Below the pieces are notes generated by a model. It ran no database searches and was not told where the DNA came from. It saw nothing but the letters and a program-made list of their open reading frames with translations. This document shows, in pieces, positions 34,454 to 59,897 of a stretch of 64,000 nt of DNA; position 1 is the stretch's first letter; the number at the start of each line of letters is the position of its first letter. Position numbers and translations under genes: made by a program. Where the stretch lies: the NCBI GenBank assembly GCA_963695975.1, contig CAVOIB010000002.1, forward strand, positions 589,855 through 653,854, in the 5' to 3' direction. The stretch is from an uncultured Actinomycetes bacterium (GTDB taxonomy: Bacteria > Actinomycetota > UBA4738 > HRBIN12).

Positions 34454-34591
34454 TGGCCGTGCTCCCTCAGACGAGTGCCGTCACGCCACCGCGACGGCAC
34501 GGGCAAGCCTAGCTGGTGCGGTCGGGCCCGATCATCGTCTGCCGATCCGGATGATGGGTGCCCTACGCTCGGGGGACCCCCGTCCGGTGGG

Positions 34592-37487: not shown

Positions 37488-38504
37488 ATGGCAACGATCT
37501 ACTACGAGAAGGACACCGATCCCAGCGCGTTGAAGGATCAGAAGATCGCGATCCTCGGGTTCGGCAGTCAGGGGCACGCCCACGCGCTGAACCTGCGCGA
37601 CTCGGGCCACGACGTGCGCGTCGGGCTCCGCGCGGGCTCGTCGTCCCGCCCGAAGACCGAGGAGACGGGGCTGCGTGTCCTGGATACCGCCGACGCCGTC
37701 CGCGAGGCCGACGTCATCATGGTCGTGGTCCCCGATACCTCGCAGGCGAAGGTCTACCGTGAGGACATCGAGCCGAACCTGGAGCCCGGCAACATGCTGA
37801 TGTTCGCGCACGGGTTCAACATCCGGTTCGAGACGATCGCGCCGCCCGAGGGCATCGACGTCACCATGATCGCCCCGAAGGGTCCCGGCCACTTGGTGCG
37901 GCGGACCTACGAGCAGGGGATCGGAACGCCGGCGTTGATCGCCGTCCACCAGGATGCGACGGGCAACGCAAAGGCGCGCGCGCTCGCGTACGCGCACGGG
38001 ATCGGCGCCGCCCGTGCCGGCGTCCTCGAGACCACGTTCAAAGAGGAGACCGAGACCGACCTGTTCGGTGAGCAAGCCGTGCTCTGTGGCGGAGCGTCCG
38101 CGCTCGTCCAAGCGGGGTTCGAGACGCTCGTCGCGGCCGGGTACCAGCCGGAGATCGCCTATTTCGAATGCCTGCACGAGCTGAAGTTGATCGTCGACCT
38201 GATCTACGAGGGCGGCCTTTCGTGGATGCGCTACTCGATCTCCGATACGGCTGAATACGGTGACTACACGCGTGGGCCGCGCGTGGTGAGCGACGAGACG
38301 CGCGCCGAGATGCGCCGGATCCTGGACGAGATCCAGGACGGCCGGTTCGCGAAGGAATGGATCGGCGAGGCCGAGGGCGGGTTCGACACCTTCCTCCGAC
38401 TTAGGAGCGAGGCGCGGACGTCCCAGCTCGAGGATGTGGGACGGGGACTGCGCCAGATGATGCCCTGGTTGGAGTCCGAGACGAAGGTGGTTCCCGATGA
38501 CTGA
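37488..38504 (+). CDS. ilvC: Ketol-acid reductoisomerase
   Basis: NADPH-binding [15 protein letters not shown], class I KARI, 338 aa. RBS GGAGGGA. Confidence 0.9.
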
Positions 38505-42682: not shown

Positions 42683-42699
42683 GTTTCGCGACTCGCCGC

Positions 42700-43923
42700 T
42701 CAGACGGGCGGGGAGGCTCGGCGGCTCGCCCACCGGACGATCGCATCCTCGATCTGGACCGCCTCGTCCTTGGTCATCCCCCGTGAGACGATCGAGAACT
42801 CGACCCAGTCGCCGATCTTGGCGGACCACACCCAGCCAGACAGGGCCGAGATCGCGTTCAACGTGCCCGTCTTCGCGCGCACGCGCAGATGGCCGAGCCG
42901 TTCCTCCAAGGTTCCCTGACCACCGGTTGGGAGCGCCCGCCGCAGATCCTTGGCCCACGGCTGTTCGTCGGCCACCCAGAGGAGCCGCACCATCCCCTGC
43001 GCGGTGATGCGATCCGCGTAGGAGAGCCCCGACGAATCGTGGTGCTCGAACTCCGGGGCTCCGTTCGCGGCGGTGTACGCGTCGATCGCCTCGGCGGCTT
43101 GGGCGATCGACCCGGTGCCTGAGGTCTCGGCGCCCAGGAGCTTCCCCAGCACTTCCGCATCGAAGTTGTTCGAGTCCACGTCCATGCGACGGACGATGTC
43201 GATCACTGGAGCGGAATCGACCGTCGCGATCCTCACGAGTTCCGAACCTGGCGAGCCCATCGCGGGATCGCCGTCGACGGCGACCCCCCGGCGACGGAGG
43301 CTCTTCGTCAGATACGCGGCGGCGCGCGCCTCCGGGTCGTCGATGTGCCGACCCTCCGGACCGACGTTGCCGCGGAACGTCAGCGCCGTCGGGAACGGAA
43401 CCTCGTCGGCGGTGAAGTAGTCCCTCCATCCCTTCGCCCACCAGTCGCGTTCGAACGGACCCGTATCGCCGATCACCGAGCCGGTGATCTGGGTGATCCC
43501 TGCGTCGACGATGGCCGAGGCGAGCGTGTCCAGGGTCGTGGGCAGAACCTCCGGGTCGCCGTGACCCTCGATCCACAGGTCACCCTCGAGCACGCCGCCG
43601 ACCGGCGGAGCGGCGGCCTTCGCGCGCGTGGCGATCACGTGATCCGGACCAACCGTCGAGAGCAGAGCCATCGACAGGAGCAGCTTCTCGTTCGATGCGG
43701 GGATCCGCCTCACCCAGCCCAGGTGGCGATACCAGAACGCACCGTCGTCGCCGATCGCGACGGACATCTGCCGGTCGCCGACGAGTGCATCGATCCGTTG
43801 CTGCCAGTCGGTCGCGGACGTCCGTCGCGCTGGGGGCGCTGCCGGGGACGCATGCGCGGTCGCGGCCGTAACGGTCAACATCGAACCGACGAGGAGGACG
43901 GCGGCGACGAGGCGGGTACGCAT
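42700..43923 (-). CDS. dacB: D-alanyl-D-alanine carboxypeptidase/endopeptidase (PBP4, peptidase S13)
   Basis: Signal peptide and an SxxK-like ASNEKLL motif, 407 aa. Confidence 0.75.
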   Translation of the reverse strand: MRTRLVAAVLLVGSMLTVTAATAHASPAAPPARRTSATDWQQRIDALVGDRQMSVAIGDDGAFWYRHLGWVRRIPASNEKLLLSMALLSTVGPDHVIATRAKAAAPPVGGVLEGDLWIEGHGDPEVLPTTLDTLASAIVDAGITQITGSVIGDTGPFERDWWAKGWRDYFTADEVPFPTALTFRGNVGPEGRHIDDPEARAAAYLTKSLRRRGVAVDGDPAMGSPGSELVRIATVDSAPVIDIVRRMDVDSNNFDAEVLGKLLGAETSGTGSIAQAAEAIDAYTAANGAPEFEHHDSSGLSYADRITAQGMVRLLWVADEQPWAKDLRRALPTGGQGTLEERLGHLRVRAKTGTLNAISALSGWVWSAKIGDWVEFSIVSRGMTKDEAVQIEDAIVRWASRRASPPV

Positions 43924-43972
43924 GATCGCTCGATGGTACGAGGTGGATCGACGGTCGCCCGGGAGCCGCCCG

Positions 43973-46900
43973 CTAGCGATCGTGAGCGAGCGCCTCAGCC
44001 TCGCGCTGCATCTCGGCCCGCTCCTCGAGCAGCGTGTTCAACGCGTGTGGTTCGAGCGGCCGGGCGAAGAGGAAGCCCTGTCCCAGGTCGCACTTCAGCT
44101 CCATCAGGCGTTCGAGCTGATCGGGGCGCTCGATCCCCTCGGCCACCGGTGTCAGATTGAGGATGCCCGCGAGCTCGATCACGGCTGCCGTGAGCGCCGA
44201 GGACTCCCCGCCCTCGCTCACCTCGTCGATGAAGGACTTGTCGACCTTCAAGATGTCTACGGGGAACCGTCGCACGTAGTTGAGCGAGGAATACCCGGTT
44301 CCGAAGTCATCGATCGCCAGCAGCACACCGAGCTGCTTCAGCTGCTTCAGCCGCTCGATCGCGAGCTCCATGTCCTGCATGACCATGCTCTCGGTGATCT
44401 CCAGGACCAGTGCTGATGGCTGCAACCTTGTCTCGTCGAGGAGATCCCGGACCTCGTCCACGATCTCCGGTCGCGCCAGCTGACGGGCCGACAGGTTGAC
44501 GGCCATGTGGAACGGCGGGTCCATCGGGAACCGGTCCTGCAGCTCGACCGCGTACCGTGCGGCCTGTTCGAGCACCCACCGGCCGATCGGCACGATCAGC
44601 CCCGTCTCCTCGGCGAGCGGGATGAACTCGAGCGGCTGGACCAACCCGCGCTCCGGATGGACCCAGCGGATCAGCGCCTCGACGCCGTTGATGCGCCCGG
44701 TTTCGAGCTCGATCACCGGTTGGTAGTGCAAGACGAACTCCTCGTGCTCGAGGGCGCGCTGCAGGTCCGCCTTCAACTCGAGGCGGCGGAGCGCCGTGTC
44801 GTGCATCTCGGGCTCGAACACCTGGTACCTGCCCTTGCCGCGCTCCTTGGCCATGTACATCGCCACGTCCGCGTTGCGGAGCAGTTCCTCCGCAGCGTCC
44901 TCGCCGGTCCCCGCCGTGCCGTCCGCGACCGCGATGCCGACGCTGGCTCGGACGAACACCTCCTTGCCCTCGAGCAGGAACGGCTCCTGGAGCATCTGCA
45001 TGATGCGTTCGGCGACGTCGGCGGCCTGGACTCCGTCGCCGCCATCCTCGAGCAGGATCGCGAACTCGTCGCCGCCCAAACGCGCGGCGGTATCGGCGGC
45101 GCGGAGCGTACCTTTCAAGCGTTCGCCGACCTCCGCTAGCAATCCGTCGCCCGCGGCGTGGCCGAGCGAGTCGTTGATCGTCTTGAAGTCGTCTAGGTCC
45201 ATGAACAGCACCGAGATCGGGCGTCGATCACGCTCCTGGCGTTCGATCGCGTGCAGGACACGGTCCCGGAAGAGCGCGCGGTTCGCGAGGTTCGTGATCG
45301 AATCGTGGAAGGCCTGGCGTTCGAGCTCCGCTTCGAACTGCTTGCGCTCGGTGATGTCTCGCGTGTTGAGGACGATGCCGCGCACGTTGGGGTCGTGGAG
45401 CAGGCTCGTGCGGAGCGTCTCGGTGAACAGGTACGACCCGCTCCGGTGGCGCAGGCGGAACTCTAGGAGGCTCGTGCTGCCCTCGCCCTCGATCGCAGAG
45501 GAGAGGAACGACAGGGCGCGTGTCTTGTCGTCGGGGTGGATCAGATCGATGAAGCGGCTCCCCTCCAACTCCTCGGGTTCGAACCCGAGGACGCGAGAGG
45601 CCGACGGACTGGCGTAGCGGACCACCGTGTCCGGCTCGATCACCGTCACGATATCGGAGGAGTTCTTCACCAGCGACGCGAACCGCGCCTCGCTCTGGCG
45701 GATCAGCAGGTCCTCGGTGAGCGCAGCGCTCTCCAAGGCGAGCGCGACCTGCGACGAGAGGGCCCGGAGGCTGTCGGTGACCGAGAGGCTCATCTCGAGC
45801 GGGGTCGCGACCACCATCAGGCCGCGGAACGCATCCCGCATGAAGATCGGGGCGACGAGCACCGACCCCTGGTCCTCGGGGGGGAGCGCCAGCGGATCAC
45901 GCAGGGTGCTCTCGTAGGACCTGACGACGTATGCGTCGCGCTCCATAAGCCGTTGTCGCTTCCATTCTTGCAGGACCGAGAACGACAGGTGCAGGCCAAG
46001 GACGTCGGCGGTTCCACCTTCGGCCGCCACCACGACCAGTTCGTCGGGTGCGTCGCCGACGACCTCGCAGAACCGTACCGCCGCATCCGCGCCGGCGAGC
46101 GTCCGTGCAGCCTCGATCGCCGCCTGGTGGATCGCATCGCGGTTCGTCGCCGTGACGAGGGCGAGCCCCGCCTCACGGAGCGCTCGCTCGCGCGCGGCCG
46201 ACTGCTCCTGTGTCCGAACCAGGCCGGCCATCCTCGCGATCACCAAGAGGAACAGCACCACGGAGGCGGCGATCACCACGAGCTCGTCGGTGCGTGCGAT
46301 AGCGGAGGCAGGCGTGTCCGCCAGGCGCGAGAGCAGCATCGCGCCGGTGATCGGGGCGATCAGCGACACGATCGCCAACACGACAAGCCGGAAACGAGAC
46401 AGCGCCCGGCGGACCTCGGTCGAGCGTTCGGAGAAGAGCTTCGATGCAGGATGCAGCGCCGCCGCGCCCAACAACAGGTAGAACGCGGCCCAGCCTCCCT
46501 CTAGGTAGCCCGTCTGGTTGTCGTATCCACCGTGCAGTCCGTACCAGCCGTAGATCGCGTCGGTCACGAACAGCGCCAACACCGCCGCGAGCACCAGATA
46601 GAAGGCGCCGCTGCGACGGCCGCCGCCGACCGCCAGACGGATCGCTCCCGTGATCAGCATCAGGTCGAACAGCGGGTAGCCCATCGATACCAGCTTCTGC
46701 AGCGAGGTGAGGGAGGAGTCGTGCGAGTAAGGCGCGATGAGGAACACCCACGAGAGGACCCCGACGCCGACCGCGACGATCAGCGAATCGATCATGCTGT
46801 CGCGGTCGCGGCCCGGGTTGCGGCGCCGCATCAGAAGGAGCATGCCCGCGAGCAGGCATGGGTAGACCGAGAGGTAGAACACGTCGCCGATCGACGGGTA

Positions 46901-47161
46901 GGGAAGCTCCGTGCCGAAGAACCGCTCGTAGTTGTACGTGATCACGTCGCCGGCCACGAAGAGGGCCTGGCCGAGCGCGATCAAGATCCACGGCAGCTTG
47001 TACTCCACGTGGTTCATGCGAAGCGCGATCAGGATCACGATCGGGGATGAGATCGCGATGAGGTTCAGTAGGGCGCCGATGCGCAGTCCCGGCACGGTGA
47101 GGAAGGCCACGGTCGTGATCGACCCCAGCAACAGGTACACGAGCCACGCTCGTGACTTCAT
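43973..47161 (-). CDS. Membrane sensor, GAF, PAS, GGDEF and EAL cyclic-di-GMP turnover protein
   Basis: N-terminal polytopic domain of ~290 aa. Intact GGDEF (RLGGDEF) and EAL (EALIRW...DDFGTGYSSL) motifs. 1062 aa. Confidence 0.85.
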   Translation of the reverse strand: MKSRAWLVYLLLGSITTVAFLTVPGLRIGALLNLIAISSPIVILIALRMNHVEYKLPWILIALGQALFVAGDVITYNYERFFGTELPYPSIGDVFYLSVYPCLLAGMLLLMRRRNPGRDRDSMIDSLIVAVGVGVLSWVFLIAPYSHDSSLTSLQKLVSMGYPLFDLMLITGAIRLAVGGGRRSGAFYLVLAAVLALFVTDAIYGWYGLHGGYDNQTGYLEGGWAAFYLLLGAAALHPASKLFSERSTEVRRALSRFRLVVLAIVSLIAPITGAMLLSRLADTPASAIARTDELVVIAASVVLFLLVIARMAGLVRTQEQSAARERALREAGLALVTATNRDAIHQAAIEAARTLAGADAAVRFCEVVGDAPDELVVVAAEGGTADVLGLHLSFSVLQEWKRQRLMERDAYVVRSYESTLRDPLALPPEDQGSVLVAPIFMRDAFRGLMVVATPLEMSLSVTDSLRALSSQVALALESAALTEDLLIRQSEARFASLVKNSSDIVTVIEPDTVVRYASPSASRVLGFEPEELEGSRFIDLIHPDDKTRALSFLSSAIEGEGSTSLLEFRLRHRSGSYLFTETLRTSLLHDPNVRGIVLNTRDITERKQFEAELERQAFHDSITNLANRALFRDRVLHAIERQERDRRPISVLFMDLDDFKTINDSLGHAAGDGLLAEVGERLKGTLRAADTAARLGGDEFAILLEDGGDGVQAADVAERIMQMLQEPFLLEGKEVFVRASVGIAVADGTAGTGEDAAEELLRNADVAMYMAKERGKGRYQVFEPEMHDTALRRLELKADLQRALEHEEFVLHYQPVIELETGRINGVEALIRWVHPERGLVQPLEFIPLAEETGLIVPIGRWVLEQAARYAVELQDRFPMDPPFHMAVNLSARQLARPEIVDEVRDLLDETRLQPSALVLEITESMVMQDMELAIERLKQLKQLGVLLAIDDFGTGYSSLNYVRRFPVDILKVDKSFIDEVSEGGESSALTAAVIELAGILNLTPVAEGIERPDQLERLMELKCDLGQGFLFARPLEPHALNTLLEERAEMQREAEALAHDR

Positions 47162-47215
47162 GGAGGTTGTATCGTCCCGCTCCCGGCCGACCCTTAGTAC
47201 GCAGGGAGCCGCGCG

Positions 47216-48514
47216 TTAGACGTCGGCCGTATGGGGGACGTGGGCGAGGTCCTCGGACCGTTCGACCGAACGCATCCCGGGCAGGAACAAGAACGAGAAC
47301 GTCACGATGGCCCCCAGGATCCCCGCACCGACGAGCGTGGCTCGCGCGCCGATGGCACTGGCCACGGGGCCGGTGAGCGCGTATGAGACGGGCAGGAGGC
47401 CGATCGACACGAACCAGTCGAGGCTCGATACCCGGCCAAGGAGCTGACGCGGGACCAGGCGCTGCTTCGTCGTCGCCCACACGATCGTGCCCGCCGTCTC
47501 GAGCGCGTTGAACAGGAAGCACGCGAGCATGGCCTGCCACGGCAGGTGCGCCAATCCGTAGCCGGCGACCGCGAGCGTGGACAGTGTCCAGGCGACGTAC
47601 ATGAACGTGATGAACTTCCGAGGTGCTCCGCGGTGCCCCATGATCAAGGCTGCGCCGATCGCGCCGACCCCGCCCATCGCCAGGATGATCCCGAGCGTGA
47701 GTGGGTTGCCTCCCCAGTCGGTCTTGACCAACAACGGCAACAGGACCTCCTGGGGACCGATGAACAAGAGATAGGCGAACGTCGCCGCGAGAAGGGTGCC
47801 CCACAGCCACACACGCGCGCGCACGAAGCGGAACCCTTCACGCACGTCTTCGAATGCGGTCCCGCTGCCGTCGAGGGGTGCATCGAGCGGGTGCGGACTC
47901 ATCATCAGCAGCGCGACGATCGAGGCACCGAACGTCGCGGCATCCATCAGGAACGCGCCACCGACGCTCCACCCCACGAGGGCCCCGCCGAGGGCGGGGC
48001 CGAGCAGGCGCCAGGCGGCCGGCCTGACGAACTGGTCGACCGAGTTCGCCTGGGTGAGCAGGTCGGATGCGACCAGATCGGGGACGATCGCGTCGAACGC
48101 CGGACCGAAGAACGCGGTCCCGCCTCCGTAGATCGCGGCGAGGACCATGAGGTGCCAGAGCTCGATGTGCCCCGTCAGCGAGAGCCATCCCATCGCGGCG
48201 ACCGACAGCCCGCGAACCAGGTCGGCGAGCAGCAGCACCCGGCGTCGGTCGAAGCGATCGCTCACGACGCCACCAGCCAGCAGGAAGATCACGTGGGGGA
48301 TGGTCATCGCCAGACCGACGAGCGAAAGGGCGGTCGGCGTGTCCGAGAGCTCGTACACCTGCCAGGCGAGGGCCACCAGGAAGATGCCGTCGCCGATCAG
48401 CGAGATGGTCATGCCCGACCAGAGCAGTCGGAAGTCGCGGTGTCGAAGCGGTTCGAGGATGACCGGGAGTCGCCGGCGCGACCTGCTCGGCTTCCCCTCT
48501 GGATCGGACCTCAT
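47216..48514 (-). CDS. MFS transporter
   Basis: Twelve TM segments. Start trimmed to MRSDPEG because the 490-aa track ORF overlaps the histidine-kinase gene. Confidence 0.75.
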   Translation of the reverse strand: MRSDPEGKPSRSRRRLPVILEPLRHRDFRLLWSGMTISLIGDGIFLVALAWQVYELSDTPTALSLVGLAMTIPHVIFLLAGGVVSDRFDRRRVLLLADLVRGLSVAAMGWLSLTGHIELWHLMVLAAIYGGGTAFFGPAFDAIVPDLVASDLLTQANSVDQFVRPAAWRLLGPALGGALVGWSVGGAFLMDAATFGASIVALLMMSPHPLDAPLDGSGTAFEDVREGFRFVRARVWLWGTLLAATFAYLLFIGPQEVLLPLLVKTDWGGNPLTLGIILAMGGVGAIGAALIMGHRGAPRKFITFMYVAWTLSTLAVAGYGLAHLPWQAMLACFLFNALETAGTIVWATTKQRLVPRQLLGRVSSLDWFVSIGLLPVSYALTGPVASAIGARATLVGAGILGAIVTFSFLFLPGMRSVERSEDLAHVPHTADV

Positions 48515-48581
48515 CGACCCCATCGACCTCTCTGTGTCGGCCGGCGTCCAGACCGGGCCCTTTCCGACTTCCCCCGAACGA

Positions 48582-50741
48582 CTACGCGGGTCCGAAGGTG
48601 TCGACGGCGGCCGGGACGAGTCCACGTTGCGGTTCGCCGTCGTCCCCTGTCCCCGCGTCGCCCTCTCCCGCGGAGGGGAGATAGACACGGAACGAGGCCC
48701 CGCCGCCTTCCCGCTCCTCGACCCACGCCCGCCCGCCGTGGAGCTCGGCGAACCGAGTCACGAGCGAGAGGCCGATGCCGACGCCCGGGTTGTGACGGAC
48801 GACCTCGTTCCCCTGGCGGAACGGTTCGAAGATCGAGTTGCGGATGTCTTCAGGGACGCCAGGCCCAGCGTCCTCCACCAGGATGAGCACGCCGCTCGCG
48901 TCCTCGCTCGCACCGACCCAGATCGGCGTACCGGGGGGTGTGTAGCGGATCGCGTTCGCGACGAGGTTCTCGACGATCCGTTCGACCTGTGCCGCATCGA
49001 CGTTCGCGGGAACGGGATCGGTCACGGTGAGCTCGATCGGATGGCTATCTGAGGCCGTTTCCTGGAGGACCCGAGCGAGGATCTGTGTCATGTCCACGTG
49101 GGCGCGGTTGGGTGCCACGATGCCGCGGGACATGCGGTCGAGGTCGAGCAGGTTCGTCAGCAGGCGGTGGAGCTTGCGGGCGTTGGCTGCGATACGCCCG
49201 ACCAGGTCGTGCTCGTCCTCCCGGGAGATCTGCTCGCGGCCGAGGCTCCCCTCCAGCGTCAGGGCGCAGCCGAGGATGCTGGTGAGCGGCGTCCGAAGGT
49301 CGTGAGACACGGCCTGCAGGAACGAGTTCTGCATCTCGTGGAGCGCTCGAAGACGCGTGGCGGCCTCCTTCTCGGCGTCGAGCGCCTTGACCAGCTGGGC
49401 TTCGGCCTGCTTCTGCTCAGTGACGTCGTACATCACGCCCTGCAGGCTGACCGGCCGTCCGGTCTCGTCCTCGAGCGCCTCTGCCTCCTCGTGGATCCAG
49501 ATCACCTGGCCGTCCTTGCCGACGATCCGATACTCACAGGCCATCCGGGGCTCGCCGTTCAGCAGCCGGAGTTCGGCGTCCAACGCGCGCTCGCGATCCT
49601 CGGGGAGGATGCGCTCACGCCACAGTTCCGCCTGTCCTGTCCATTCATCCTGACTGAAGCCGAGGATCGATTCGATCTTCGGGCTGATGTAGCGCCACGC
49701 CGCATCCTTGCCGAACTCGGCGATGTAGACGACGGCCGGAAGGCCTTCGACGAGCGACCGGTACTTCGCCTCGGCTTCGCGCAGCTGCCGCTCCGCCCTG
49801 CGGTACTTCCCGATGTCGACCATCAGGCCGTTCAGCCGTACCAAGACCAGGACGAACAGCACGGCGGAGGCGCCGGCGAGGACGGCGACGTCGACGTTGT
49901 CGCCTCGGAGTGCCTGGATCACGAGGACCGTCGGCGCGATCAGTGACGCCCCGGCCAGCAACGCGAGGCGCCGGCGAGGGTGCGCCAGGTCGCCCTCGGG
50001 CGTGGGTTCGTCGAGGTTCGCCATCGAGGGGTGCAGGGCCGCTGCCCCCCACAACAGGTAGAAGAAGCCCCAGCCCAACTCGAGGAGCCCGGTCGAGTTG
50101 TCGTACGACCCGTGCAGCAGGATCCACGTGTAGATCGTGTCGGTGGTGAAGAGCACCGTGATCGAGGCGATCATCAGGTAGAACGCGGGGGGCCGGCGTC
50201 CGCGGCCGACCGCGAGGCGTACCGCTACGCCGAACAACAGCATGTCCATGATGGGGTAGGCCATCGAGGTCAGCTTCTGGATCAGCGGGATCGATTGGTC
50301 GTGCGCGTAGGGGGCCAGCAGGAAGACCCAAGAGAGCGTCCCGACCCCGATGGCGATGATCAGCGAGTCGATGAGACTGGCGCGGTCGCGGCCGGGGCTG
50401 CGCCGACGAACCAGCAGCAACACTCCGGCGATCAGCGGGGGATAGACGCTCAGGTAGAGCAGGTCGCCGATCGACGGGAACGGCGGCGCGGTCCCGAAGA
50501 AGCGCTCGTAGTTGTACGTGATCACATCGCCGGCGACGAAGAGCGTCTGCCCGATCGCGAAGAGGTACCAGGGCAGACGCTGGCGAGGTTCGTGCAGCCT
50601 CGCCGCGATGACGATGGCGATCGGTGCTGAGAGTCCGATCAGGTTGAACAGTGGGCCGACGCGGATCGGGTGGACGAACACGAACGCGGTAAGCACCGCG
50701 CCGCCGATGGTCAGGTAGAGGGCCCACGCCCGAGCTTTCAT
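48582..50741 (-). CDS. Membrane sensor, PAS and histidine kinase (orphan)
   Basis: Same N-terminal polytopic domain as the 43973..47161 protein. HisKA H-box SHDLRTPL; HATPase N, G1 and G2 boxes. No response regulator is adjacent. Confidence 0.85.
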   Translation of the reverse strand: MKARAWALYLTIGGAVLTAFVFVHPIRVGPLFNLIGLSAPIAIVIAARLHEPRQRLPWYLFAIGQTLFVAGDVITYNYERFFGTAPPFPSIGDLLYLSVYPPLIAGVLLLVRRRSPGRDRASLIDSLIIAIGVGTLSWVFLLAPYAHDQSIPLIQKLTSMAYPIMDMLLFGVAVRLAVGRGRRPPAFYLMIASITVLFTTDTIYTWILLHGSYDNSTGLLELGWGFFYLLWGAAALHPSMANLDEPTPEGDLAHPRRRLALLAGASLIAPTVLVIQALRGDNVDVAVLAGASAVLFVLVLVRLNGLMVDIGKYRRAERQLREAEAKYRSLVEGLPAVVYIAEFGKDAAWRYISPKIESILGFSQDEWTGQAELWRERILPEDRERALDAELRLLNGEPRMACEYRIVGKDGQVIWIHEEAEALEDETGRPVSLQGVMYDVTEQKQAEAQLVKALDAEKEAATRLRALHEMQNSFLQAVSHDLRTPLTSILGCALTLEGSLGREQISREDEHDLVGRIAANARKLHRLLTNLLDLDRMSRGIVAPNRAHVDMTQILARVLQETASDSHPIELTVTDPVPANVDAAQVERIVENLVANAIRYTPPGTPIWVGASEDASGVLILVEDAGPGVPEDIRNSIFEPFRQGNEVVRHNPGVGIGLSLVTRFAELHGGRAWVEEREGGGASFRVYLPSAGEGDAGTGDDGEPQRGLVPAAVDTFGPA

Positions 50742-50807
50742 CGCACTCTCGATATCGGGATGCTGGGACGGAGACCTTAGGGTGTAGCAGGCTGCGATCG
50801 AGCGCGA

Positions 50808-52109
50808 TCAGGGGGTGGTGCCGATGGTCTGGCGGAGCTGGAACCGATCGCGGAGCGTTCCCAGGACCGAGATCAGATGGTCGATCTCCTCGGGGGTGTT
50901 GGCCGCGGTCACCTGGATCCGGAACCCGACCTCGTCCTTCGGGACGAGCGGATACGCCGCCATCGTCACGTAGATCCCTTGGTCGTAGAGGTATCGACCG
51001 ACCTCGTCGATCTCGTCGTGGTCGGCGAGCGACACCTCGATGATCGGGAACCCGCTCTCGTTCGGCGTGCGGATCCCCAAGCGATCGAGCGCGTCCAGCA
51101 CGCGGTGGGTCATCTCCCACATCGTGAACCGCGCGAGGTCGCCGCGCCTGCGGTTCACCTCGAGGCCGGCGATCGTCGTGGCGAGCGAGGCGACGGGCGA
51201 TGGCCCCGAGTAGAGGTACGGCGGCGCGAGTACCTTCAGCGCGTCCTTCAACCTCGTCGGGAGCGCCATGAAGGCCAGGAGCGAGGAGTACGACTTCGAG
51301 AATCCGGCCACCATCACGACGTGTTCATAGCCGACGCCTTGGTGACGGAAGACGCTGTTCCCCTTGGTGCCGTAGTCGCAAAGCTCGTCCGGCGAGCGCT
51401 CGCCGATGACGCCGAACCCATGGGCATCGTCCAGGTAGAGCAGCGCGTCGTGCGCGCAGGCGATGCGGGCGAACTCCCCGACGTCGGGCGCGTTGCCGGT
51501 CATCGAGTTGACCCCGTCCATGGCGATCACGCGGGGCAGGCCTGGGTCGCTCGCGGTGATGAGCTCCTCCAGGTGCGCCGCGTCGTTGTGTCGGAATCGG
51601 ACGACCTGTGCTCCGTGACCTGCGGCGACCATGGCGCCGTCGTAGATCGTCTTGTGGGCGCGCCCGTCCAGGAATACCGTGCCGTCGCCGACCAGCACGG
51701 GGATCGTCGACATGTGGATGTGGGTGATCGTCGGGAGCAGGAGCACGTCCTCGCAGACGAGGAGGTCGGTCATCTCCTCCTCGATCTCCTCGTAGAGCCG
51801 TGGGCTGCCGAGGAGTCGCGACCAGCTGGGGTGGGTTCCCCACTTCGCCAGATAGTCGGGGACCGCGGCGATGATCTCCTCGTCCAGGTCGAACCCCAGG
51901 TAGTTGCACGAGGCGAAGTCGGTGAGCCAATGATCGCCGATCCTGATCTTCCGGCCGACCTGTTCGTCGATCACGGCATCCACCATCGGGTGCTCGTGCT
52001 TCAGACGGGTGAGATCGGAGGTCGTGGCGACCCAGCGGTCAAGCCAGCCGTCACCCTGCCGCCTGCGCGGCTTGCCGTTCGGGGACGGCTCCACCTGGGC
52101 ATCCGACAT
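50808..52109 (-). CDS. Alpha-oxoamine synthase family PLP enzyme (BioF/serine-palmitoyltransferase-like)
   Basis: Fold-type I with PLP lysine context VMVAGFSKSY and DDAHGFGVIG. Start taken as MSDAQ; the ORF begins at 52220. Confidence 0.75.
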   Translation of the reverse strand: MSDAQVEPSPNGKPRRRQGDGWLDRWVATTSDLTRLKHEHPMVDAVIDEQVGRKIRIGDHWLTDFASCNYLGFDLDEEIIAAVPDYLAKWGTHPSWSRLLGSPRLYEEIEEEMTDLLVCEDVLLLPTITHIHMSTIPVLVGDGTVFLDGRAHKTIYDGAMVAAGHGAQVVRFRHNDAAHLEELITASDPGLPRVIAMDGVNSMTGNAPDVGEFARIACAHDALLYLDDAHGFGVIGERSPDELCDYGTKGNSVFRHQGVGYEHVVMVAGFSKSYSSLLAFMALPTRLKDALKVLAPPYLYSGPSPVASLATTIAGLEVNRRRGDLARFTMWEMTHRVLDALDRLGIRTPNESGFPIIEVSLADHDEIDEVGRYLYDQGIYVTMAAYPLVPKDEVGFRIQVTAANTPEEIDHLISVLGTLRDRFQLRQTIGTTP

Positions 52110-52327
52110 CCGGCGTCGGATCTGCCCTCGGGGTCTGCCGTTCGACGCTCCGTTATCGGTCGACGGGAGTTCCATGGAATACCCACATCGGCGCATCCCC
52201 ACGCCGACTTGAAGGGGCACGGGGGGTGACTCCGCCCCCGTCCATCTGGGGGAGTCCGTCTGGTGGTGCGCCCGGCCTCGCCGTAGACTCGGCCCTTCCG
52301 CGAGGCCGAAGACGATGGGGGAGCGCG

Positions 52328-53686
52328 GTGCGCGCGATCGACCGGTCGAGGATCCACGACCTGATGGAGCGTGAGCGGCAGACGTTCCGTGAACGGCATC
52401 CTCGATGCGGTGCGCTGGCGGAGGAGGCCAAGGCCTCGCTCCTCTACGGCGTGCCGATGAACTGGATGGTCCGCTGGCCGGGCGACTGGCCGGTGTTCGT
52501 CGATCGGGCGGAGGGCGCGCGCTTCACGGACGTCGACGGGAACACCTACGTCGATCTCTGCCTCGGTGACACCGGCGGCATGGCCGGACACGCGCCGAAG
52601 GCCGCGGTCGAGGCGATCGCCGAGCAGGCCGCCCGTGGGATCACGCTGATGCTCCCGACCGAGGACGCGGCGTGGGTGGGCTCGGAGATGGCTCGGCGCT
52701 TCGGTCTCCCGTACTGGCAATTCTGCCTGACGGCGACCGACGCGAACCGCTTCGTGATCCGTTGGGCGCGGGAGGTCACCGGCCGTCCGAAGATCGTCGT
52801 GCATAACTGGAACTACCACGGCTCGGTCGACGAGACGTTCGCGCGGTTGGACGACGGCGGAAACGTCCGGGCCCGCGAGGGCTTGGTTGGGCCGCCGGTC
52901 CCGTTGGACGTGACGACCAAGGTGGTTGAGATCAACGACCTCGATGGTCTGGAGGCCGTCTTGAGGGCGGGCGACGTGGCATGTTGCCTCTTCGAGCCCG
53001 CGCTCACGAACATCGGGATCGTCCTGCCCGATCCGGGCTACCACGACGGCGTCCGCGACCTGTGCTCGAGGAACGGGACGCTCCTCGTGATCGACGAGAC
53101 CCACACGATCTGCGCCGGCCCTGGCGGATGCACGAAAGCGTGGGGTCTCCGCCCGGACATCGTGACGATCGGTAAGACGCTCGGCGCGGGGATCCCGAGC
53201 GCCGCCTACGGCATGACCGAAGACGTGGCGCGCCGGATCGTGGAGCACACCGACTTCCAGCACATCGACGTCGGCGGCACGGGCGGGACGCTCGCCGGGA
53301 ACGCCCTATCGTTCGCCGCGATGCGGGCGACGCTCGGTCAGGTCCTCACCGACGAGGCGTTCGTGCAGATGATCGCGCTCGGCGAACGGTTCGAGCGCGG
53401 TGTGGCGGATGTCATCGCGTCGCGCGAGCTGCCGTGGCATGTGACGCGTCTTGGGTGCCGAGTGGAGTACCTGTTCCGGCCGGATGCGGCCAGGAGCGGC
53501 GCTCAAGCGGCGGCCGGGCAAGACGAAGAGCTCGATCCCCTGATCCATCTCTACCTGTTGAACCGAGGGATCTTGATCACCCCGTTCCACAACATGGCGC
53601 TGATGTCCCCGGCGACGACCGCCCAGGATGTGGACGCGCACACCGAGACGTACGCGCAAGCTGTCGACGAGCTGGTGGGAGGTTGA
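52328..53686 (+). CDS. Class-III (GSA/BioA-like) aminotransferase
   Basis: PLP lysine TIGKTLGAG, VIDETHT and HNWNYHGS motifs. Start uncertain: GTG at 52328 or ATG at 52364. Confidence 0.75.
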   Translation: MRAIDRSRIHDLMERERQTFRERHPRCGALAEEAKASLLYGVPMNWMVRWPGDWPVFVDRAEGARFTDVDGNTYVDLCLGDTGGMAGHAPKAAVEAIAEQAARGITLMLPTEDAAWVGSEMARRFGLPYWQFCLTATDANRFVIRWAREVTGRPKIVVHNWNYHGSVDETFARLDDGGNVRAREGLVGPPVPLDVTTKVVEINDLDGLEAVLRAGDVACCLFEPALTNIGIVLPDPGYHDGVRDLCSRNGTLLVIDETHTICAGPGGCTKAWGLRPDIVTIGKTLGAGIPSAAYGMTEDVARRIVEHTDFQHIDVGGTGGTLAGNALSFAAMRATLGQVLTDEAFVQMIALGERFERGVADVIASRELPWHVTRLGCRVEYLFRPDAARSGAQAAAGQDEELDPLIHLYLLNRGILITPFHNMALMSPATTAQDVDAHTETYAQAVDELVGG

Positions 53687-53688
53687 CC

Positions 53689-54057
53689 GTGACCGACGCG
53701 AGGATCGCGTACGTGCTGCTGGATTCCACCGACCCTGCCGCACTCGTCCCGTTCTGGACCGAGCTGCTTGGAGTGGGGGTCGCGGCGACCGTGGACGAGG
53801 GGGCCTTCGTGGTGTTGGATGCCGCGGCCGACGGCCCCCCCGCGCTCGCGTTCCAGCGCGTCCCTGAGTCGAAGTCGGGGAAGAATCGCATGCACCTCGA
53901 CCTGGTCGTGGACGACCTGGAAGCTGCGACCCAGCGGATCACCGAGATGGGCGGCGTCTGGCTCGACGGCGAGACGCGCGAGATCGGCGGCTACCGCTGG
54001 CGGTGCATGGCCGACCCCGAGGGTAACGAGTTCGACATCGTTCCGGACGACAACTAG
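53689..54057 (+). CDS. VOC/glyoxalase-family protein
   Basis: 122 aa. Metal-ligand pattern MHLDLVVDD and C-terminal PEGNEFDIV. GTG start 2 nt after the aminotransferase stop. Confidence 0.65.
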   Translation: MTDARIAYVLLDSTDPAALVPFWTELLGVGVAATVDEGAFVVLDAAADGPPALAFQRVPESKSGKNRMHLDLVVDDLEAATQRITEMGGVWLDGETREIGGYRWRCMADPEGNEFDIVPDDN

Positions 54058-54072
54058 TCTGGGATAGACTAG
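54054..54072. repeat. Palindrome CTAGTCT-GGGAT-AGACTAG (copy 3 of 3)
   Basis: Contains the TAG stop of the VOC gene on the + strand and the TAG stop of serC on the - strand. Confidence 0.6.
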
Positions 54073-55172
54073 CCTGCGGTCGCAGCGAAATCCCACATGA
54101 AGTCGGCGAGCGCTCGCGCCCCCTCGATGGGCATGGCGTTGTAGATGGAGGCACGGATCCCGCCGACGCTCCGGTGCCCCTTCAGTTCGGCCATGCCGCG
54201 GGCGGCCGACTCCGCCACGAAGCGACGTTCGTGCGCCTCGTCGGGCAGCCGGAACGTGACGTTCATGAGGGAGCGCGATCCCGCCCGCGCATGGCCTCGA
54301 TAGAAGCCCTCGCTCCCATCGATCGCGTCGTAGATCAAGCCCGCCTTCTCACGGTTGATGGCGAGCTGCGCCTCGAGGCCGCCAACATCGTCCTTCAGCC
54401 AGCGCGTGACGAGCGTCAGCACGTAGATCGCGAACACCGGTGGCGTGTTGTGCATGGATGCCGATGTGGCGTAGGTGCGGTAGTCGAGCATCGTCGGCAG
54501 CCCGTCGGGCACACGATCGAGCATATCTTCGCGAACGACCGCCACGGTGACGCCGGCCGGTCCGGCGTTCTTCTGCGCGCCCGCGTAGAGCACGCCGTAC
54601 GGCTTCAGGTCCACGGGCCGCGAGAGGAAGTCGGATGATGCGTCGCAGACCAGTGGCACGCCATCGGGAACTGCGGGTGTGTCGGGGAACTCGACGCCCT
54701 GGATGGTCTCGTTCGACGTGACGTGGACGTAAGCGGCCGCGTCGTCGAGGACAGCGCCGAGCTCCTCGTCACCGGGCACGCGGACGAACCCCTCGGCCTT
54801 CCCGGACCACACCCGGCGGACCGGACCCTCGCGTTCGGCTTCGACGACGGCCTTCTCGCTCCAGGTCCCGGTCACGACGTGATCGGCGGACCGCGGGCGG
54901 CCTCGGAGCAGGTTCATCGCGACCATCGAGAACTGCAGCGTGGCGCCGCCTTGACAGAACAGGACGTGATGGCTGTCGGGGATCGACAGCAGCGCCCGGA
55001 GGTTCGCCTCGGCCTCCCCGATCACGCCCTCGAACCACGGGCTGCGATGCGAGACCTCGAGGGGTGAGGCGCCGAGCCCAGGGAGCGAGATCAGGTCGCG
55101 CTGCACCTCCTCGAGAACCTTGAGCGGAAGGATCGCCGGTCCGGCAGAGAAGCTGTAGACGCGGTCGCTCAT
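54069..55172 (-). CDS. serC: Phosphoserine aminotransferase
   Basis: Class-V aminotransferase, 368 aa. FSAGPA N-terminus and PLP lysine context GAQKNAGPAG. The 461-aa track ORF was trimmed. Confidence 0.85.
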   Translation of the reverse strand: MSDRVYSFSAGPAILPLKVLEEVQRDLISLPGLGASPLEVSHRSPWFEGVIGEAEANLRALLSIPDSHHVLFCQGGATLQFSMVAMNLLRGRPRSADHVVTGTWSEKAVVEAEREGPVRRVWSGKAEGFVRVPGDEELGAVLDDAAAYVHVTSNETIQGVEFPDTPAVPDGVPLVCDASSDFLSRPVDLKPYGVLYAGAQKNAGPAGVTVAVVREDMLDRVPDGLPTMLDYRTYATSASMHNTPPVFAIYVLTLVTRWLKDDVGGLEAQLAINREKAGLIYDAIDGSEGFYRGHARAGSRSLMNVTFRLPDEAHERRFVAESAARGMAELKGHRSVGGIRASIYNAMPIEGARALADFMWDFAATAG

Positions 55173-55214
55173 CCAGGACCAGGGTATCGTGACTCCCCGT
55201 TCGAAAGGCTCGAC

Positions 55215-56219
55215 ATGGCGTACAAGCGGATCTTGTTCGGCACCGATGGTTCGGCGTCCGCCCGGGCCGCTGGCGCGGTCGCCGCAGCTCTTGCGAAGGC
55301 AGGCAAGGCGCAACTGATCGTTGCGTGCGCGTTCGCCAAACCGACCGACGCGGAACGCGTGGTCGCCGCCGGCGTCGAGGAGGCGGAGGCGGCCGGTGTC
55401 CGCCGGGTCGAGGGGGAGAGCCGCGCCGGCCTCCCGGCCGACGCGTTGATCCAACTTTCGGACGAGCGCGATGTCGGATTGCTGGTCGTCTCGGGCGGCA
55501 GCGGCGGCAAGGGGCTCGGATCGGTGGCGAATCGGCTCGCCTTGCGTTCTCCTCGAGACGTCCTTCTGGTGATCGGCTCGGCGTCGACGGACGCGGATGC
55601 GCCGGTCTATCGACGGGTGGTGATCGCGACCGACGGTTCATCCACGGCGGATCGCGCCGCGCGCAAGGGATACGAGCTCGCCGAGACGCTAGGCGTGCCG
55701 GTCACGATCGTCTTCGTCGGGCACCCGAAGACGGGCGAGCTCGTGACGCAGGACACGATCGCGACGTATGCGGGTGAGGTGCCGACCGACGTGATGCTCC
55801 GAGAGGGACAGCCTGCGGCGCAGATCCTGGCGGCCGCCGACGAGGCGGACGCGGGCGTGGTGGTCGTCGGGAACAAGGGGATGACGGGCGCCAAGGGATT
55901 CCTGCTCGGATCCGTGCCGCAAGAGGTGGCCGAGGGATCCACCCGAGACGTGCTGATCGCCCGCACGGTCACGCAGATCGTCTCCGATCTCTCGCGGGGT
56001 GAGGGTGGGATCGTCGAGCGCGCAGGCGAGAAGATGGCCGTCTTCGTCGACGATGCTGGTGAACTCCACGTGATGAGCGCGCGCTGCACGCACATGGGAT
56101 GCACGGTCGCATGGAACCCGGGGGAAGGGACGTTCGATTGTCCCTGTCACGGGTCGCGGTTCGGCCCGATTGGCGATGTCGTGAACGGCCCGGCGGCGCG
56201 TCAGCTTCCGCCCGCCTGA
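55215..56219 (+). CDS. Tandem universal-stress-protein (UspA) domains fused to a C-terminal Rieske [2Fe-2S] domain
   Basis: Two Usp ATP-binding folds (VVVGNKGMTGAKGFLLGSV). C-terminal box I CTHMGC and box II CPCHGS. Confidence 0.7.
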   Translation: MAYKRILFGTDGSASARAAGAVAAALAKAGKAQLIVACAFAKPTDAERVVAAGVEEAEAAGVRRVEGESRAGLPADALIQLSDERDVGLLVVSGGSGGKGLGSVANRLALRSPRDVLLVIGSASTDADAPVYRRVVIATDGSSTADRAARKGYELAETLGVPVTIVFVGHPKTGELVTQDTIATYAGEVPTDVMLREGQPAAQILAAADEADAGVVVVGNKGMTGAKGFLLGSVPQEVAEGSTRDVLIARTVTQIVSDLSRGEGGIVERAGEKMAVFVDDAGELHVMSARCTHMGCTVAWNPGEGTFDCPCHGSRFGPIGDVVNGPAARQLPPA

Positions 56220-56232
56220 CGGAGCTGATCGC

Positions 56233-56703
56233 TCAGAACGGCTGGAACATCATCAGGTAGAGGATCGCGAGCAATCCGATCACGCCGATCGTCGTGATCA
56301 GGTGCGCCTCGTTCGATCTAAGGAGTTGCTGGAGCTCCTCATCGGAGACCCGAGGTACCCCCGACGGCCGGACCTCGCACGCGGCGGTGACCCGCTGGAA
56401 GTAGGGCTTAGCGAGCACGGTCATCAAGGCGATCGTGATCAGCAGGATCAGGATCGAGGTCAAGAGCCACCAAGCCGAGAGCACGTGCAGCGAGATCGCC
56501 GTACCAACGCCGCCTACCACGAGCACACCGAGGGCGATGTACATCGGCTTGGTGGTCGTTCCGCTGAACGCGATCAGCCCTGCGATCTTCTGTCGATCGC
56601 GCTCGCCGCGGATCCGGTAGAGCACGACCAAAGACACGCCGTGCGCGCCGACGAACGCCAGCACGCCGGCGACATGCAGAAAGAGCCACCATTGCCAGGC
56701 CAT
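56233..56703 (-). CDS. Integral membrane protein, hypothetical (4 TM)
   Basis: 156 aa, hydrophobic helices, high GC3. Confidence 0.5.
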   Translation of the reverse strand: MAWQWWLFLHVAGVLAFVGAHGVSLVVLYRIRGERDRQKIAGLIAFSGTTTKPMYIALGVLVVGGVGTAISLHVLSAWWLLTSILILLITIALMTVLAKPYFQRVTAACEVRPSGVPRVSDEELQQLLRSNEAHLITTIGVIGLLAILYLMMFQPF

Positions 56704-56987
56704 GGGCGGCTCACCATACCGAACAGAGACGCGTTCAACCCGCGTCTTGCCCGCGGTGATGGTGGATCCGCAGGATATGACCTCTGGACCGGATCCCTCG
56801 GCGCAGATGTACCCGGTTCGGGAGGATCCCCCATCGGCGGCTCAGCGGCTGTTTCGACTCATGAGCGCCGAGCGCCCGGATCATGTCGGAGCGTGAACGG
56901 ATCCGCATCTCGATCCCCTCCTACCCGACCGTAGCGCGCGGCCGGAAACAGTGGCGGAGCCGAAGGTCCCGGCGATGGAGGGACCGC

Positions 56988-57836
56988 TCAGCCGCGATCG
57001 AGCGGACGCGTCAGGCAGGTCGGCCCACCATCGCCCTTCAGCGAGATCTCCTCGCCGCGGTAGGTGCGCACGTCGACTCCCGCGGCCTCCATCCGCCGCC
57101 GGGTCTCGTCGTTGCCCTCCAGGGCGAGCGCTATCCGAGGTCCGAGCGCGAGGACGTTCGGCCCCATCGTGTCGAACTCGTCGTCCGGCACCTCGACCAG
57201 GCGCACGTCTCGTTCCCGCAGGAGCTCCAGCAGACGCACCGGCATCATCGGCGGGAACGCCACGGCGAGGTCGACGTCGAGCGGCGAGATGAACGACAGC
57301 AGATGCAGGCATGCGTCCGGTCCTCGGTGGTGCGGCAGGTCGAAGACCACGACGTCGACGGAGGGCCCGAGCAGGGCTCGCAGCTGATCGAGCCCGTCGT
57401 CGTTGGTGCGATATCCGCGGCCGGCGAGCAGCGTGGACGGGTCGAGCCAGCAGAGGTCACCCCCCTCGACCGTGCCAGGGGGCTTAACGCTGCCGACGGT
57501 CGGGATGCCGGCGGTCGCGAGGTCGGTGGCGATCGCGTCGGGCTCGGCTCGCCTTTCGGGCTTGCCCGGCCGGAGCAGGATCGCGCCTGTGTCGGTCAAC
57601 AGGATCGGGTCGTACGTGTAGATCGCATCGGGGTCGCCCGGGACCGCGACCGCCCCGAGCAGCACCACGGCGCCCGCGCGTTCGAGCTCCGCCCGGAATG
57701 CAGCGTGTTCGTCGGAAGCTCGAGCCAGGTCGGGTTGTGCGTGCCAGCCGTAGGCACGCCACGCTTGCGAGTCGTCCGCCACGGGGTCGCGAACGTAGAC
57801 GCGATGCAGGGCGCCCGTCTGGTCCTGGATCGACAT
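56988..57836 (-). CDS. Amidinotransferase-superfamily hydrolase (dimethylarginine dimethylaminohydrolase / arginine-deiminase-like)
   Basis: 282 aa. The C-terminal catalytic Cys in GGPTCLTRPL is the hallmark of DDAH/ADI/AGAT enzymes. Confidence 0.6.
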   Translation of the reverse strand: MSIQDQTGALHRVYVRDPVADDSQAWRAYGWHAQPDLARASDEHAAFRAELERAGAVVLLGAVAVPGDPDAIYTYDPILLTDTGAILLRPGKPERRAEPDAIATDLATAGIPTVGSVKPPGTVEGGDLCWLDPSTLLAGRGYRTNDDGLDQLRALLGPSVDVVVFDLPHHRGPDACLHLLSFISPLDVDLAVAFPPMMPVRLLELLRERDVRLVEVPDDEFDTMGPNVLALGPRIALALEGNDETRRRMEAAGVDVRTYRGEEISLKGDGGPTCLTRPLDRG

Positions 57837-57859
57837 CGACCGTCGTTCCCATCGCGGGT

Positions 57860-59754: not shown

Positions 59755-59897
59755 GACGGACGAAAGTCGCGACCACCGAGCCGAACGGTCCCGACCGTTC
59801 GACTCGCTGTCCGATCATGTCCCGACCTCGGTCGCTACCACGACTCGAGCCAGTGGTTCATCACATGCGTTCCCACGACGTCCGCTCCGTCTGACAG

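Follow-up and report, generated by a model that had tools for sequence, protein, structure and literature searches.

Sequence analysis of an alpha-oxoamine synthase gene from an uncultured actinomycete: a probable synthase, exporter and receptor cassette adjoining a separate aminotransferase-VOC pair

We analyzed a stretch of 64,000 nucleotides (nt) from an uncultured Actinomycetes bacterium (GTDB lineage Bacteria; Actinomycetota; UBA4738; HRBIN12). It covers positions 589,855 to 653,854 of contig CAVOIB010000002.1 in assembly GCA_963695975.1, and the whole stretch is called the window below. In it, a gene for an alpha-oxoamine synthase (AOS) is transcribed divergently from a gene for a class-III aminotransferase (AT), behind which lies a small gene of the VOC/glyoxalase fold. 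An earlier note on this DNA had taken the AOS and the AT for a reaction pair of the BioF/BioA kind, with the VOC protein as their companion. The comparison of gene order across species indicates, from the sequences compared, that two separate units adjoin at this place. That is, the AOS appears to head a conserved same-strand cassette with one or two sensors and an efflux-type MFS transporter, and the AT and the VOC protein appear to form a unit of their own. The features are as follows, in positions of the window.

50808..52175, minus strand: AOS, first gene of the conserved cassette; alternative start at 52109
48582..50741, minus strand: sensor histidine kinase with a membrane domain of about 10 helices, PAS, HisKA and HATPase (Pfam)
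47216..48412 (open reading frame open to 48688), minus strand: MFS_3 efflux-type transporter (PF05977, PF07690)
43973..47161, minus strand: second sensor of 1062 aa, with a membrane domain of about 10 helices, GAF, PAS, GGDEF and EAL (Pfam)
52176..52327: divergent spacer of about 152 nt between AOS and AT, read from the sequence
52328..53686, plus strand: AT, class-III aminotransferase (NF005453/PRK07046), resembling glutamate-1-semialdehyde (GSA) aminomutase
53689..54057, plus strand: VOC/glyoxalase-fold protein of 122 aa (PF18029)
42700..44037, minus strand: S13 peptidase (D-Ala-D-Ala carboxypeptidase), context only

The real genes were separated from numerous spurious open reading frames (ORFs) by their G+C content at third codon positions. 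The three genes of the earlier note were found where it had placed them, apart from ORF starts that were too long, and its assignment of the three products to the AOS, class-III GSA-like aminotransferase and VOC families was confirmed by Pfam and NCBIfam. The AOS ORF (50808..52220, 470 aa) is over-extended: its homologues are mostly 455 aa long and align from the ATG at 52175, and the source assembly calls a protein of 433 aa with its start at 52109. The AT ORF (52226..53686) is likewise too long, and its real start is the GTG at 52328, which gives 452 aa. The conserved cassette runs from the AOS leftwards to about 43973 in the order AOS, histidine kinase, MFS transporter and GAF-PAS-GGDEF-EAL protein, and the kinase gene starts 66 nt past the AOS stop.

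The AOS and the genes conserved beside it

The AOS ORF matched PF00155 (7.9e-25). Its product carries an Aminotran_1_2 domain and the complete AOS catalytic set, which places it in the AOS family. Every AOS-type model of NCBIfam also matched it, each well below its own cut-off, as listed here.

bioF (TIGR00858): 175.5 bits, cut-off 426.45
Serine palmitoyltransferase (SPT), NF047599: 169.4 bits, cut-off 500
SPT, NF047600: 152.5 bits, cut-off 640
SPT, NF047603: 127.3 bits, cut-off 670
BioF/Kbl-related model: 155 bits, cut-off 535
Kbl, NF005394: 141.9 bits, cut-off 460
Kbl, TIGR01822: 115.2 bits, cut-off 493
ALAS: 122 bits, cut-off 339
CqsA type, NF005526: 82.4 bits, cut-off 428; the lowest of the AOS models

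By the model cut-offs, the enzyme is a member of none of the BioF, Kbl, bacterial SPT and CqsA/LqsA families. The nearest solved structures are those of ThAOS, a broad-specificity enzyme of BioF/Kbl type from Thermus thermophilus (7poa/8s1y, 1.3e-39), and of the Sphingomonas SPT (2jgt, 1e-32). It shares with them the same catalytic set of fold type I: the histidine that stacks on PLP (in GRAHKT), the DDAHG motif, the lysine of the Schiff base (in FSKS) and the C-terminal arginine (in GFRIQ) align with those of 7poa and 2jgt. These residues are invariant in 14 homologues, in which the mean column identity is 76%. Judged from the aligned residues, the enzyme appears to be catalytically intact, and an alpha-amino-ketone is its expected primary product.

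The similarity to ThAOS and SPT is nevertheless distant, and the window's enzyme belongs to a group with features of its own. The motif WGTHPSWSR stands where other AOS enzymes carry a Gly-rich loop, PTITHIHMS replaces GFxAN, and about 10 aa are inserted after DDAHG. The N-terminus bears a basic extension of about 40 aa with conserved R20, R21, D24, P29, R37 and R38. More than 7000 homologues were found, of which the top 120 are 74-100% identical. From these comparisons, the AOS appears to represent a distinct and highly conserved clade of Actinomycetota and seems to be no orthologue of BioF, Kbl, SPT, ALAS or CqsA.

The neighbours of the AOS were then compared, each GTDB species being represented by a single genome. 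Of the 600 stretches matching the search pattern, at least 586 encode a relative of the AOS, and the best 80 of these at least 586 loci, at 62-84% AOS identity, were kept. Nearly all carry the label Actinomycetota and are metagenome-assembled genomes (MAGs); Thermoleophilia, Solirubrobacterales, Gaiellales or Acidimicrobiia appear in some of the titles. All loci used in this study, including those centred on the AT described below, come from MAGs or metagenomes, and assembly frameshifts split genes in four long-read loci (L081, L087, L089, L090). The proteins of the window were searched against the AOS-side loci by tblastn.

Of the 74 species loci with enough sequence, 65 have a gene with the 10-helix domain downstream of the AOS and on its strand, and in 38 of these 65 the sensor starts within 400 nt of the AOS (39-182 nt). 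An MFS gene is likewise found downstream, on the strand of the AOS, in 39 of 60 loci. When the ORFs of the 80 loci were clustered without supervision, three families alone were widespread, namely the AOS (77 loci), the sensor (75) and the MFS transporter (36), and every other family occurred in 17 loci or fewer. The same clustering found no conserved family on the upstream side of the AOS. Acyl carrier protein (ACP), acyl-ACP synthetase, ceramide synthase, reductase, bio genes and tdh were not conserved among the neighbours in the 80 loci.

The commonest layout is AOS, 10TM-GAF-PAS-GGDEF-EAL, MFS, and the GGDEF-EAL type of sensor is the gene most often found directly after the AOS in other species. 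The layout of the window, with AOS, kinase, MFS and a further sensor, recurs in L024, L046 and L047. Others read AOS-MFS-sensor or sensor-AOS-MFS (L074), and L065 has a GGDEF-EAL gene upstream. The linkage is retained through rearrangement at 62-84% AOS identity, whether or not the kinase paralogue is present and whether or not TPR or SDR genes are inserted. In the reverse look-up, six homologues of the sensor domain on long contigs were considered, and four of them belong to an AOS cassette, one (L087) with an AOS that is frameshifted by assembly.

Two further genes and one neighbour were considered as members. A short-chain dehydrogenase/reductase (SDR) gene stands between the AOS and the sensor in nine loci, on either strand (for example L006 7301-8101, L090 4137-4976 and L036 7380-8075), and a TPR protein of 231 aa between the AOS and the MFS gene in 13 loci. 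With these counts, and with the SDR on either strand, both were rejected as core components and are lineage-specific accessories. The S13 peptidase was rejected as well. Its ORF shares 65 nt with the end of the GGDEF-EAL gene, if its true start is not further in. The ORF cluster of this peptidase is present in 17 loci, but only about eight of the members follow a GGDEF-EAL gene; the others are located upstream of the AOS or seem unrelated.

The two sensors of the window share their N-terminal part. The first 331 aa of the GGDEF-EAL protein are 55% identical to those of the kinase (5e-111), and the outputs of the two proteins differ. The shared region is hydrophobic throughout and forms the membrane domain of about 10 helices, encoded at 49812..50741 (kinase residues 1-310) and 46217..47161 (GGDEF-EAL protein). 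Pfam gave no match over kinase residues 1-250 even at E <= 10. Over residues 1-307 neither Pfam nor NCBIfam has a covering model, and the MASE3_PAS_HK match of NCBIfam spans residues 308-690 only. No known membrane sensor domain (MASE, 5TMR-LYT, 7TMR-DISM and similar) was recognized.

An AlphaFold2 model of the domain, made with 42 homologues, has ten long helices with a pLDDT of 89.5 and a pTM of 0.86. Foldseek against the PDB gave a best E of 0.083 and TM <= 0.40, with weak matches to helical bundles like those of GPCRs and rhodopsins, and no fold was assigned. In the helices, N33, D72, Y76, D93, D125, Y162 and D166 are invariant, D201 and H237 are nearly invariant, and W58 is listed among the invariant or nearly invariant residues. 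With so many acidic residues buried in it, the domain might accommodate a ligand that is cationic or an amine. It looks like an undescribed family of sensor domains, and a homology search with it returned 609 proteins at E <= 1e-5.

As for the outputs, the GGDEF-EAL protein matched GGDEF at 1.6e-45 and EAL at 1.5e-76 in Pfam. It retains the GGDEF motif, RxxD five residues upstream, EAL and DDFGTGYSS, and is a putative cyclase/phosphodiesterase of cyclic di-GMP (c-di-GMP). The H-box of the kinase (SHDLRTPL) is intact. The best NCBIfam matches of the MFS transporter are Tet(V), the 2A0121 H+ antiporter family and EntS, that is, it is exporter-like.

Two copies of the 10-helix domain, fused to PAS-GGDEF-EAL, were met in other company. 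The one in L081 (6001-9119) stands beside two genes for luciferase-like monooxygenases and an MFS_3 gene, and the one in L088 (2684-8126) beside a second, divergent GGDEF-EAL gene.

The aminotransferase and the VOC protein

The AT matched PF00202 (1.9e-40). Against NF005453/PRK07046, a model named simply 'transaminase', it scored 653.5 bits (cut-off 425) over ORF residues 36-484 and profile positions 5-452 of 453, and it is a full-length member of this family. The next best model, HemL (TIGR00713), gave 196.2 bits against a cut-off of 527.3, and the other HemL models also stayed below their cut-offs. A BioA model is absent among the 25 best of the 68 NCBIfam matches, the lowest of which listed has 73 bits. 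The closest structures are PDB 5ykr and 5ykt, deposited as 'Probable aminotransferase' (5ykr at 3.5e-144). A function for the NF005453/PRK07046 subfamily is not recorded in the databases used, and no paper citing 5YKR/5YKT as structures was found in the open-access literature searched. Rv3329, which is discussed as a putative taurine-pyruvate transaminase (PMC12910592), was suspected as a relative at first, and was dropped because the relatedness was not shown.

The VOC protein belongs to its superfamily by PF18029 (Glyoxalase_6; 2.7e-25, 89.5 against a gathering threshold of 23.6) and PF00903 (41 against 20.6). Its GTG start at 53689 lies 2 nt past the TGA stop of the AT (53684-53686), and a GGAGG stands at 53679-53683, within the 3' end of the AT and ahead of that start. 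The description of the gene as translationally coupled is therefore fair.

For the question of whether the AOS and the AT are partners, the association was counted from both sides. On the AOS side, an AT orthologue was defined by at least 60% identity, and at least 2 kb of sequence upstream of the AOS was required, which left 67 loci. For the AT side, metagenomes were scanned with aligned AT orthologues, and the 80 best loci (59-80% identity) were kept. The count was restricted to the 49 of them in which 1.7 kb or more of sequence precedes the AT.

An AT orthologue was present within 6 kb of the AOS in 11 of the 67 AOS-centred loci. It was divergent and within 500 nt in four (gaps of 186-284 nt), and elsewhere the gaps were 790-5034 nt. 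From the other side, an AOS was found near the AT in one of the 49 loci, at 2954 nt, and directly adjacent in none. In L001 (84% AOS identity) and L028 (81%), which come next in similarity after the group at 92-100%, serC lies 87-98 nt from the AOS, and both the AT and the VOC gene are missing. These two loci retain the order Usp-Rieske, serC, AOS of the window; L001 also has the kinase, and the contig of L028 stops at the AOS. Among relatives at 92-100% AOS identity, the gene order is identical to that of the window, with the AT divergent across about 150 nt. L090 has the order serC-AT-AOS-SDR-sensor.

The spacer itself was also considered. A scan of 42500-55500 for promoter and terminator consensus gave no promoter, in the AOS-AT spacer or elsewhere, and four terminator-like sites against 3.2 expected, and it was uninformative on the limits of operons. 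In blastn against the 80 loci, conservation of the DNA upstream of the AOS was confined to the coding ends and some 40 nt preceding the ATG, and no shared operator was found.

Because the adjacency fails the test of conservation from both sides, a partnership of AOS and AT is unsupported. Across the sampled loci the AOS appears to be decoupled from the AT, which is probably not its BioA-like partner. The AT and the VOC gene, for their part, do recur together. The VOC gene lies 11-30 nt behind the AT in 12-13 metagenome loci, all within the AT clade of at least 71% identity, and serC is the next gene in many of these loci. By these counts the two genes appear to be an independent, recurrent unit, usually beside serC, which in the present lineage stands between serC and the AOS.

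The AT orthologues at 59-64% identity (L118-L170) come from other soil metagenome lineages, and their neighbours are hslU, hslV and FAH-family genes (for example L134 234-1646, L129 3872-4414 and L132 8701-9507). These neighbours suggest a conserved, possibly housekeeping role for the PRK07046 transaminase subfamily. By gene context, the AT family seems to be broadly conserved in housekeeping-like surroundings and to have no tie to the AOS.

What had been said of these genes before can now be sorted. The statement that they do not make biotin stands, with the score for the curated bioF model far under its cut-off (175.5 against 426), and bioB and bioD are indeed lacking in the window. 'GSA-aminomutase-like' is right as a resemblance, HemL being the next best model after PRK07046, at 196 bits against 527. 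On the scores of the curated models, the AOS is no Kbl (142 of 460 bits) and the AT no HemL (196 of 527); orthology to either, with a housekeeping role, was an outcome that the earlier note had named as overturning it. The notion of an AOS step followed by an AT step, with the VOC protein attached, fell with the counts of 11 of 67 and 1 of 49. Of the proposed amino-ketone, diamine or sphingoid-like product, an alpha-amino-ketone is still expected from the AOS; of the partners typical of sphingolipid synthesis, ACP, acyl-ACP synthetase and ceramide synthase are missing.

Possible function of the cassette and other explanations

The cassette recalls two known systems, CqsA/CqsS of Vibrio and LqsA/LqsS/LqsT of Legionella, in which an AOS-superfamily PLP enzyme is likewise encoded beside one or more polytopic membrane sensors. 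CqsA joins an amino donor with decanoyl-CoA, and an SDR completes CAI-1. LqsA, an autoinducer synthase that depends on PLP, has membrane sensor kinases encoded alongside it (PMC5289986). The architecture of this type, a synthase gene beside the gene of a polytopic receptor, was found here in 65 of 74 loci and four of six look-ups. As with LqsS and LqsT, two paralogous receptors share one sensing domain, here a kinase and a GGDEF-EAL protein, and the SDR between AOS and sensor in nine related loci recalls the reductase step in the maturation of CAI-1.

There are also clear differences. The AOS is no orthologue of CqsA (82 bits against 428 for NF005526). The receptor domain has about 10 helices in the model, in contrast to the 6-TM design of CqsS (PMC4821796). 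The usual output here is c-di-GMP through GGDEF-EAL, in place of the phosphorelay of a hybrid kinase, the unit includes an MFS exporter of its own, and the host belongs to the Actinomycetota. Homologues of cqsA/cqsS have been reported from Legionellaceae, Vibrionaceae, Burkholderiaceae, Chlorobiaceae and Oxalobacteraceae, and no actinobacterial group is listed (PMC5289986).

From these comparisons, we consider the cassette a probable synthase, exporter and receptor unit, in which the AOS belongs to a new clade and the membrane domain of the sensors is unclassified. The fuller reading is that the locus holds two independent units and that the AOS cassette works like CqsA/CqsS, as a synthase, an exporter and a receptor feeding c-di-GMP control. 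We adopt it tentatively, as an explanation that falls slightly short of probable.

In such a system, the AOS would condense an amino acid with an acyl-CoA to an alpha-amino-ketone. The acyl-CoA would be drawn from general metabolism; the neighbourhood has no conserved ACP or ligase. The amino-ketone, or a compound formed from it spontaneously or by an enzyme, such as a hydroxyketone, a diketone or a pyrazine, would leave the cell through the MFS transporter. The 10-helix domains would then bind it in the membrane, and the ligand-bound sensors would modulate the synthesis or breakdown of c-di-GMP and, in some lineages, a phosphorelay as well. Rfam gave no match for the whole window at gathering thresholds, nor for 50600-52500 at E <= 1, and there is therefore no riboswitch or leader that would hint at the ligand.

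A bolder extension is that the cassette represents a widespread, undescribed form of small-molecule signalling in uncultured Actinomycetota of soil and groundwater, with an amino-ketone-derived autoinducer made by the new AOS clade, export by the MFS transporter and a 10-helix receptor, fused mostly to GGDEF-EAL enzymes, acting on c-di-GMP. This we regard as doubtful. If the cassette is a synthase, exporter and receptor unit as proposed, it would offer a new class of signal to seek, a membrane domain that binds a ligand and is so far missing from Pfam, NCBIfam and the PDB, and a direct link from an extracellular cue to c-di-GMP. What is known of quorum-sensing chemistry in Actinomycetota comes mainly from cultured genera and concerns butyrolactones and related molecules. 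To our knowledge, the uncultured soil classes that appear in the record titles (Thermoleophilia, Acidimicrobiia, Gaiellales) are essentially unexplored for signalling. No paper on this cassette was found in the open-access literature searched, which is weak evidence of novelty.

Several points weigh against the CqsA/CqsS-like reading of the cassette. We infer the product, its export and its sensing all from gene order. The low score for the CqsA model (82 bits) means that the likeness to CqsA would be a convergence of logic and not orthology. The kinase has no adjacent response regulator. Nine of the 74 loci have no same-strand sensor downstream, although most of them have one nearby. Two sensors (L081, L088) are orphans with no AOS within 5-6 kb, that is, the domain is not exclusive to the cassette. 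Both 80-locus sets consist of the best-scoring loci, and more distant members of the families lie outside the sample. Moreover, the AOS and the AT may be locally co-regulated in the lineage of 92-100% identity.

This last point bears on the view that AOS, AT and VOC are after all a three-gene biosynthetic unit. In it the AOS would make an amino-ketone, the AT would turn this into a vicinal diamine (or a diketone), and the VOC protein would tailor it. The chemistry is plausible, as there are class-III transaminases that use amino-ketones, and an AOS beside a class-III aminotransferase is what BioF and BioA present. The coupling of AT and VOC is real, the divergent adjacency across about 152 nt is identical in relatives at 92-100%, and four other species have the AT 186-284 nt from the AOS, with L090 offering the order given above. 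Unlike the biotin enzymes, neither protein reaches a biotin model, the window lacks bioD and bioB, and the adjacency is not conserved: the AT is near the AOS in 11 of 67 loci, at 186-5034 nt, and the AOS near the AT in one of 49. L001 and L028 have neither AT nor VOC beside serC-AOS. The AT family also extends well past the AOS clade (5ykr, 3.5e-144), and its orthologues at about 60% identity stand beside hslVU and FAH genes. The AT of the window differs from the general run of NF005453/PRK07046 proteins, to which it belongs over its full length, in that the tight VOC partner is limited to the clade of at least 71% identity. We therefore hold a joint pathway of the three genes to be very improbable. 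Adjacent PLP enzymes may resemble a pathway without being one, and in this case gene order across species reassigns the partners of the AOS.

In another explanation, the AOS might supply a head-group precursor for a membrane lipid, of the sphingoid-base or amino-lipid kind, the sensors reading the state of the membrane and the MFS transporter flipping or exporting the lipid. SPT is among the best matches of the AOS (169 bits; 2jgt, 1e-32), all its partners are integral membrane proteins, and the MFS transporter is weakly similar to LplT and to the MFS domains of acyl-ACP-phospholipid acyltransferases. On the other hand, the SPT scores lie far under their cut-offs of 500-670. ACP, acyl-ACP synthetase, ceramide synthase and reductase are neither conserved in the 80 loci nor present in the window, and the SDR occurs in nine loci only, on either strand. 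A role in lipid synthesis thus appears improbable to us.

It could also be that the AOS is a divergent BioF or Kbl with a housekeeping task, whose linkage to sensor and MFS is an inherited gene order with no shared function. That bioF is the best NCBIfam match, that the JGI pipelines label homologues as 8-amino-7-oxononanoate synthase, and that the conservation is as high as is typical of core metabolism (76% mean column identity) would agree with this. Against it are the scores themselves (bioF 175.5 against 426, Kbl 142 against 460), motifs that differ from the canonical ones of AOS enzymes (WGTHPSWSR, PTITHIHMS), and the lack of bioA, bioD, bioB or tdh both in the window and among the conserved neighbours in the 80 loci. 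In addition, synteny has fully decayed upstream of the AOS, while the sensor and MFS side has been kept through rearrangements, which is unlike neutral inheritance. We rate this explanation as quite improbable, and we return to the cassette as a CqsA/CqsS-like unit as our preferred, if tentative, reading.

Other genes of the window

The G+C content is 64-70% across the whole window, with no compositional break at the AOS/AT locus. Since the composition is uniform, the region has no island character. Pfam scans of about 44 ORFs identified as neighbours ilvD, ilvBNC, two LeuA-like genes around leuB, serC, the gene for NAD-specific glutamate dehydrogenase and catabolic genes. In the same scans of the window, bioB, bioD, bioA, a radical-SAM/BATS protein, dethiobiotin synthetase, ACP and tdh were not found.

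The genes at 38461-40059, 40041-41111 and 41054-42682, all on the plus strand and directly after ilvBNC, are leuB flanked by the two LeuA-like genes (HMGL-like and LeuA_dimer domains), which are probably 2-isopropylmalate synthase and a citramalate synthase paralogue. The glutamate dehydrogenase (59895-63998, plus strand; Bac_GDH family, more than 1368 aa) continues past the end of the window.

A gene at 55215-56219 (plus strand) encodes an unusual fusion, in which a universal-stress-protein domain is followed at the C-terminus by a Rieske [2Fe-2S] domain. This Usp-Rieske gene is divergent from serC also in L001, L006, L007, L010, L019 and L028, at 55-79% identity. Beyond it, on the side far from serC, lie genes for a membrane protein of 156 aa with a weak DUF2269 match (56240-56710, minus strand) and for an amidinotransferase/DDAH-like protein with weak ADI/DDAH Pfam matches in the source's own calls (56995-57843, minus strand). 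The position of these two genes is kept in relatives.

A second MFS_3 paralogue is encoded at 33110-34480, inside a minus-strand cluster at 29665-34480. The cluster also holds a choline/ethanolamine-kinase-like gene and a DAO-GCV_T fusion of the dimethylglycine/sarcosine-oxidase type, and it is a separate cluster for the catabolism of small amines.

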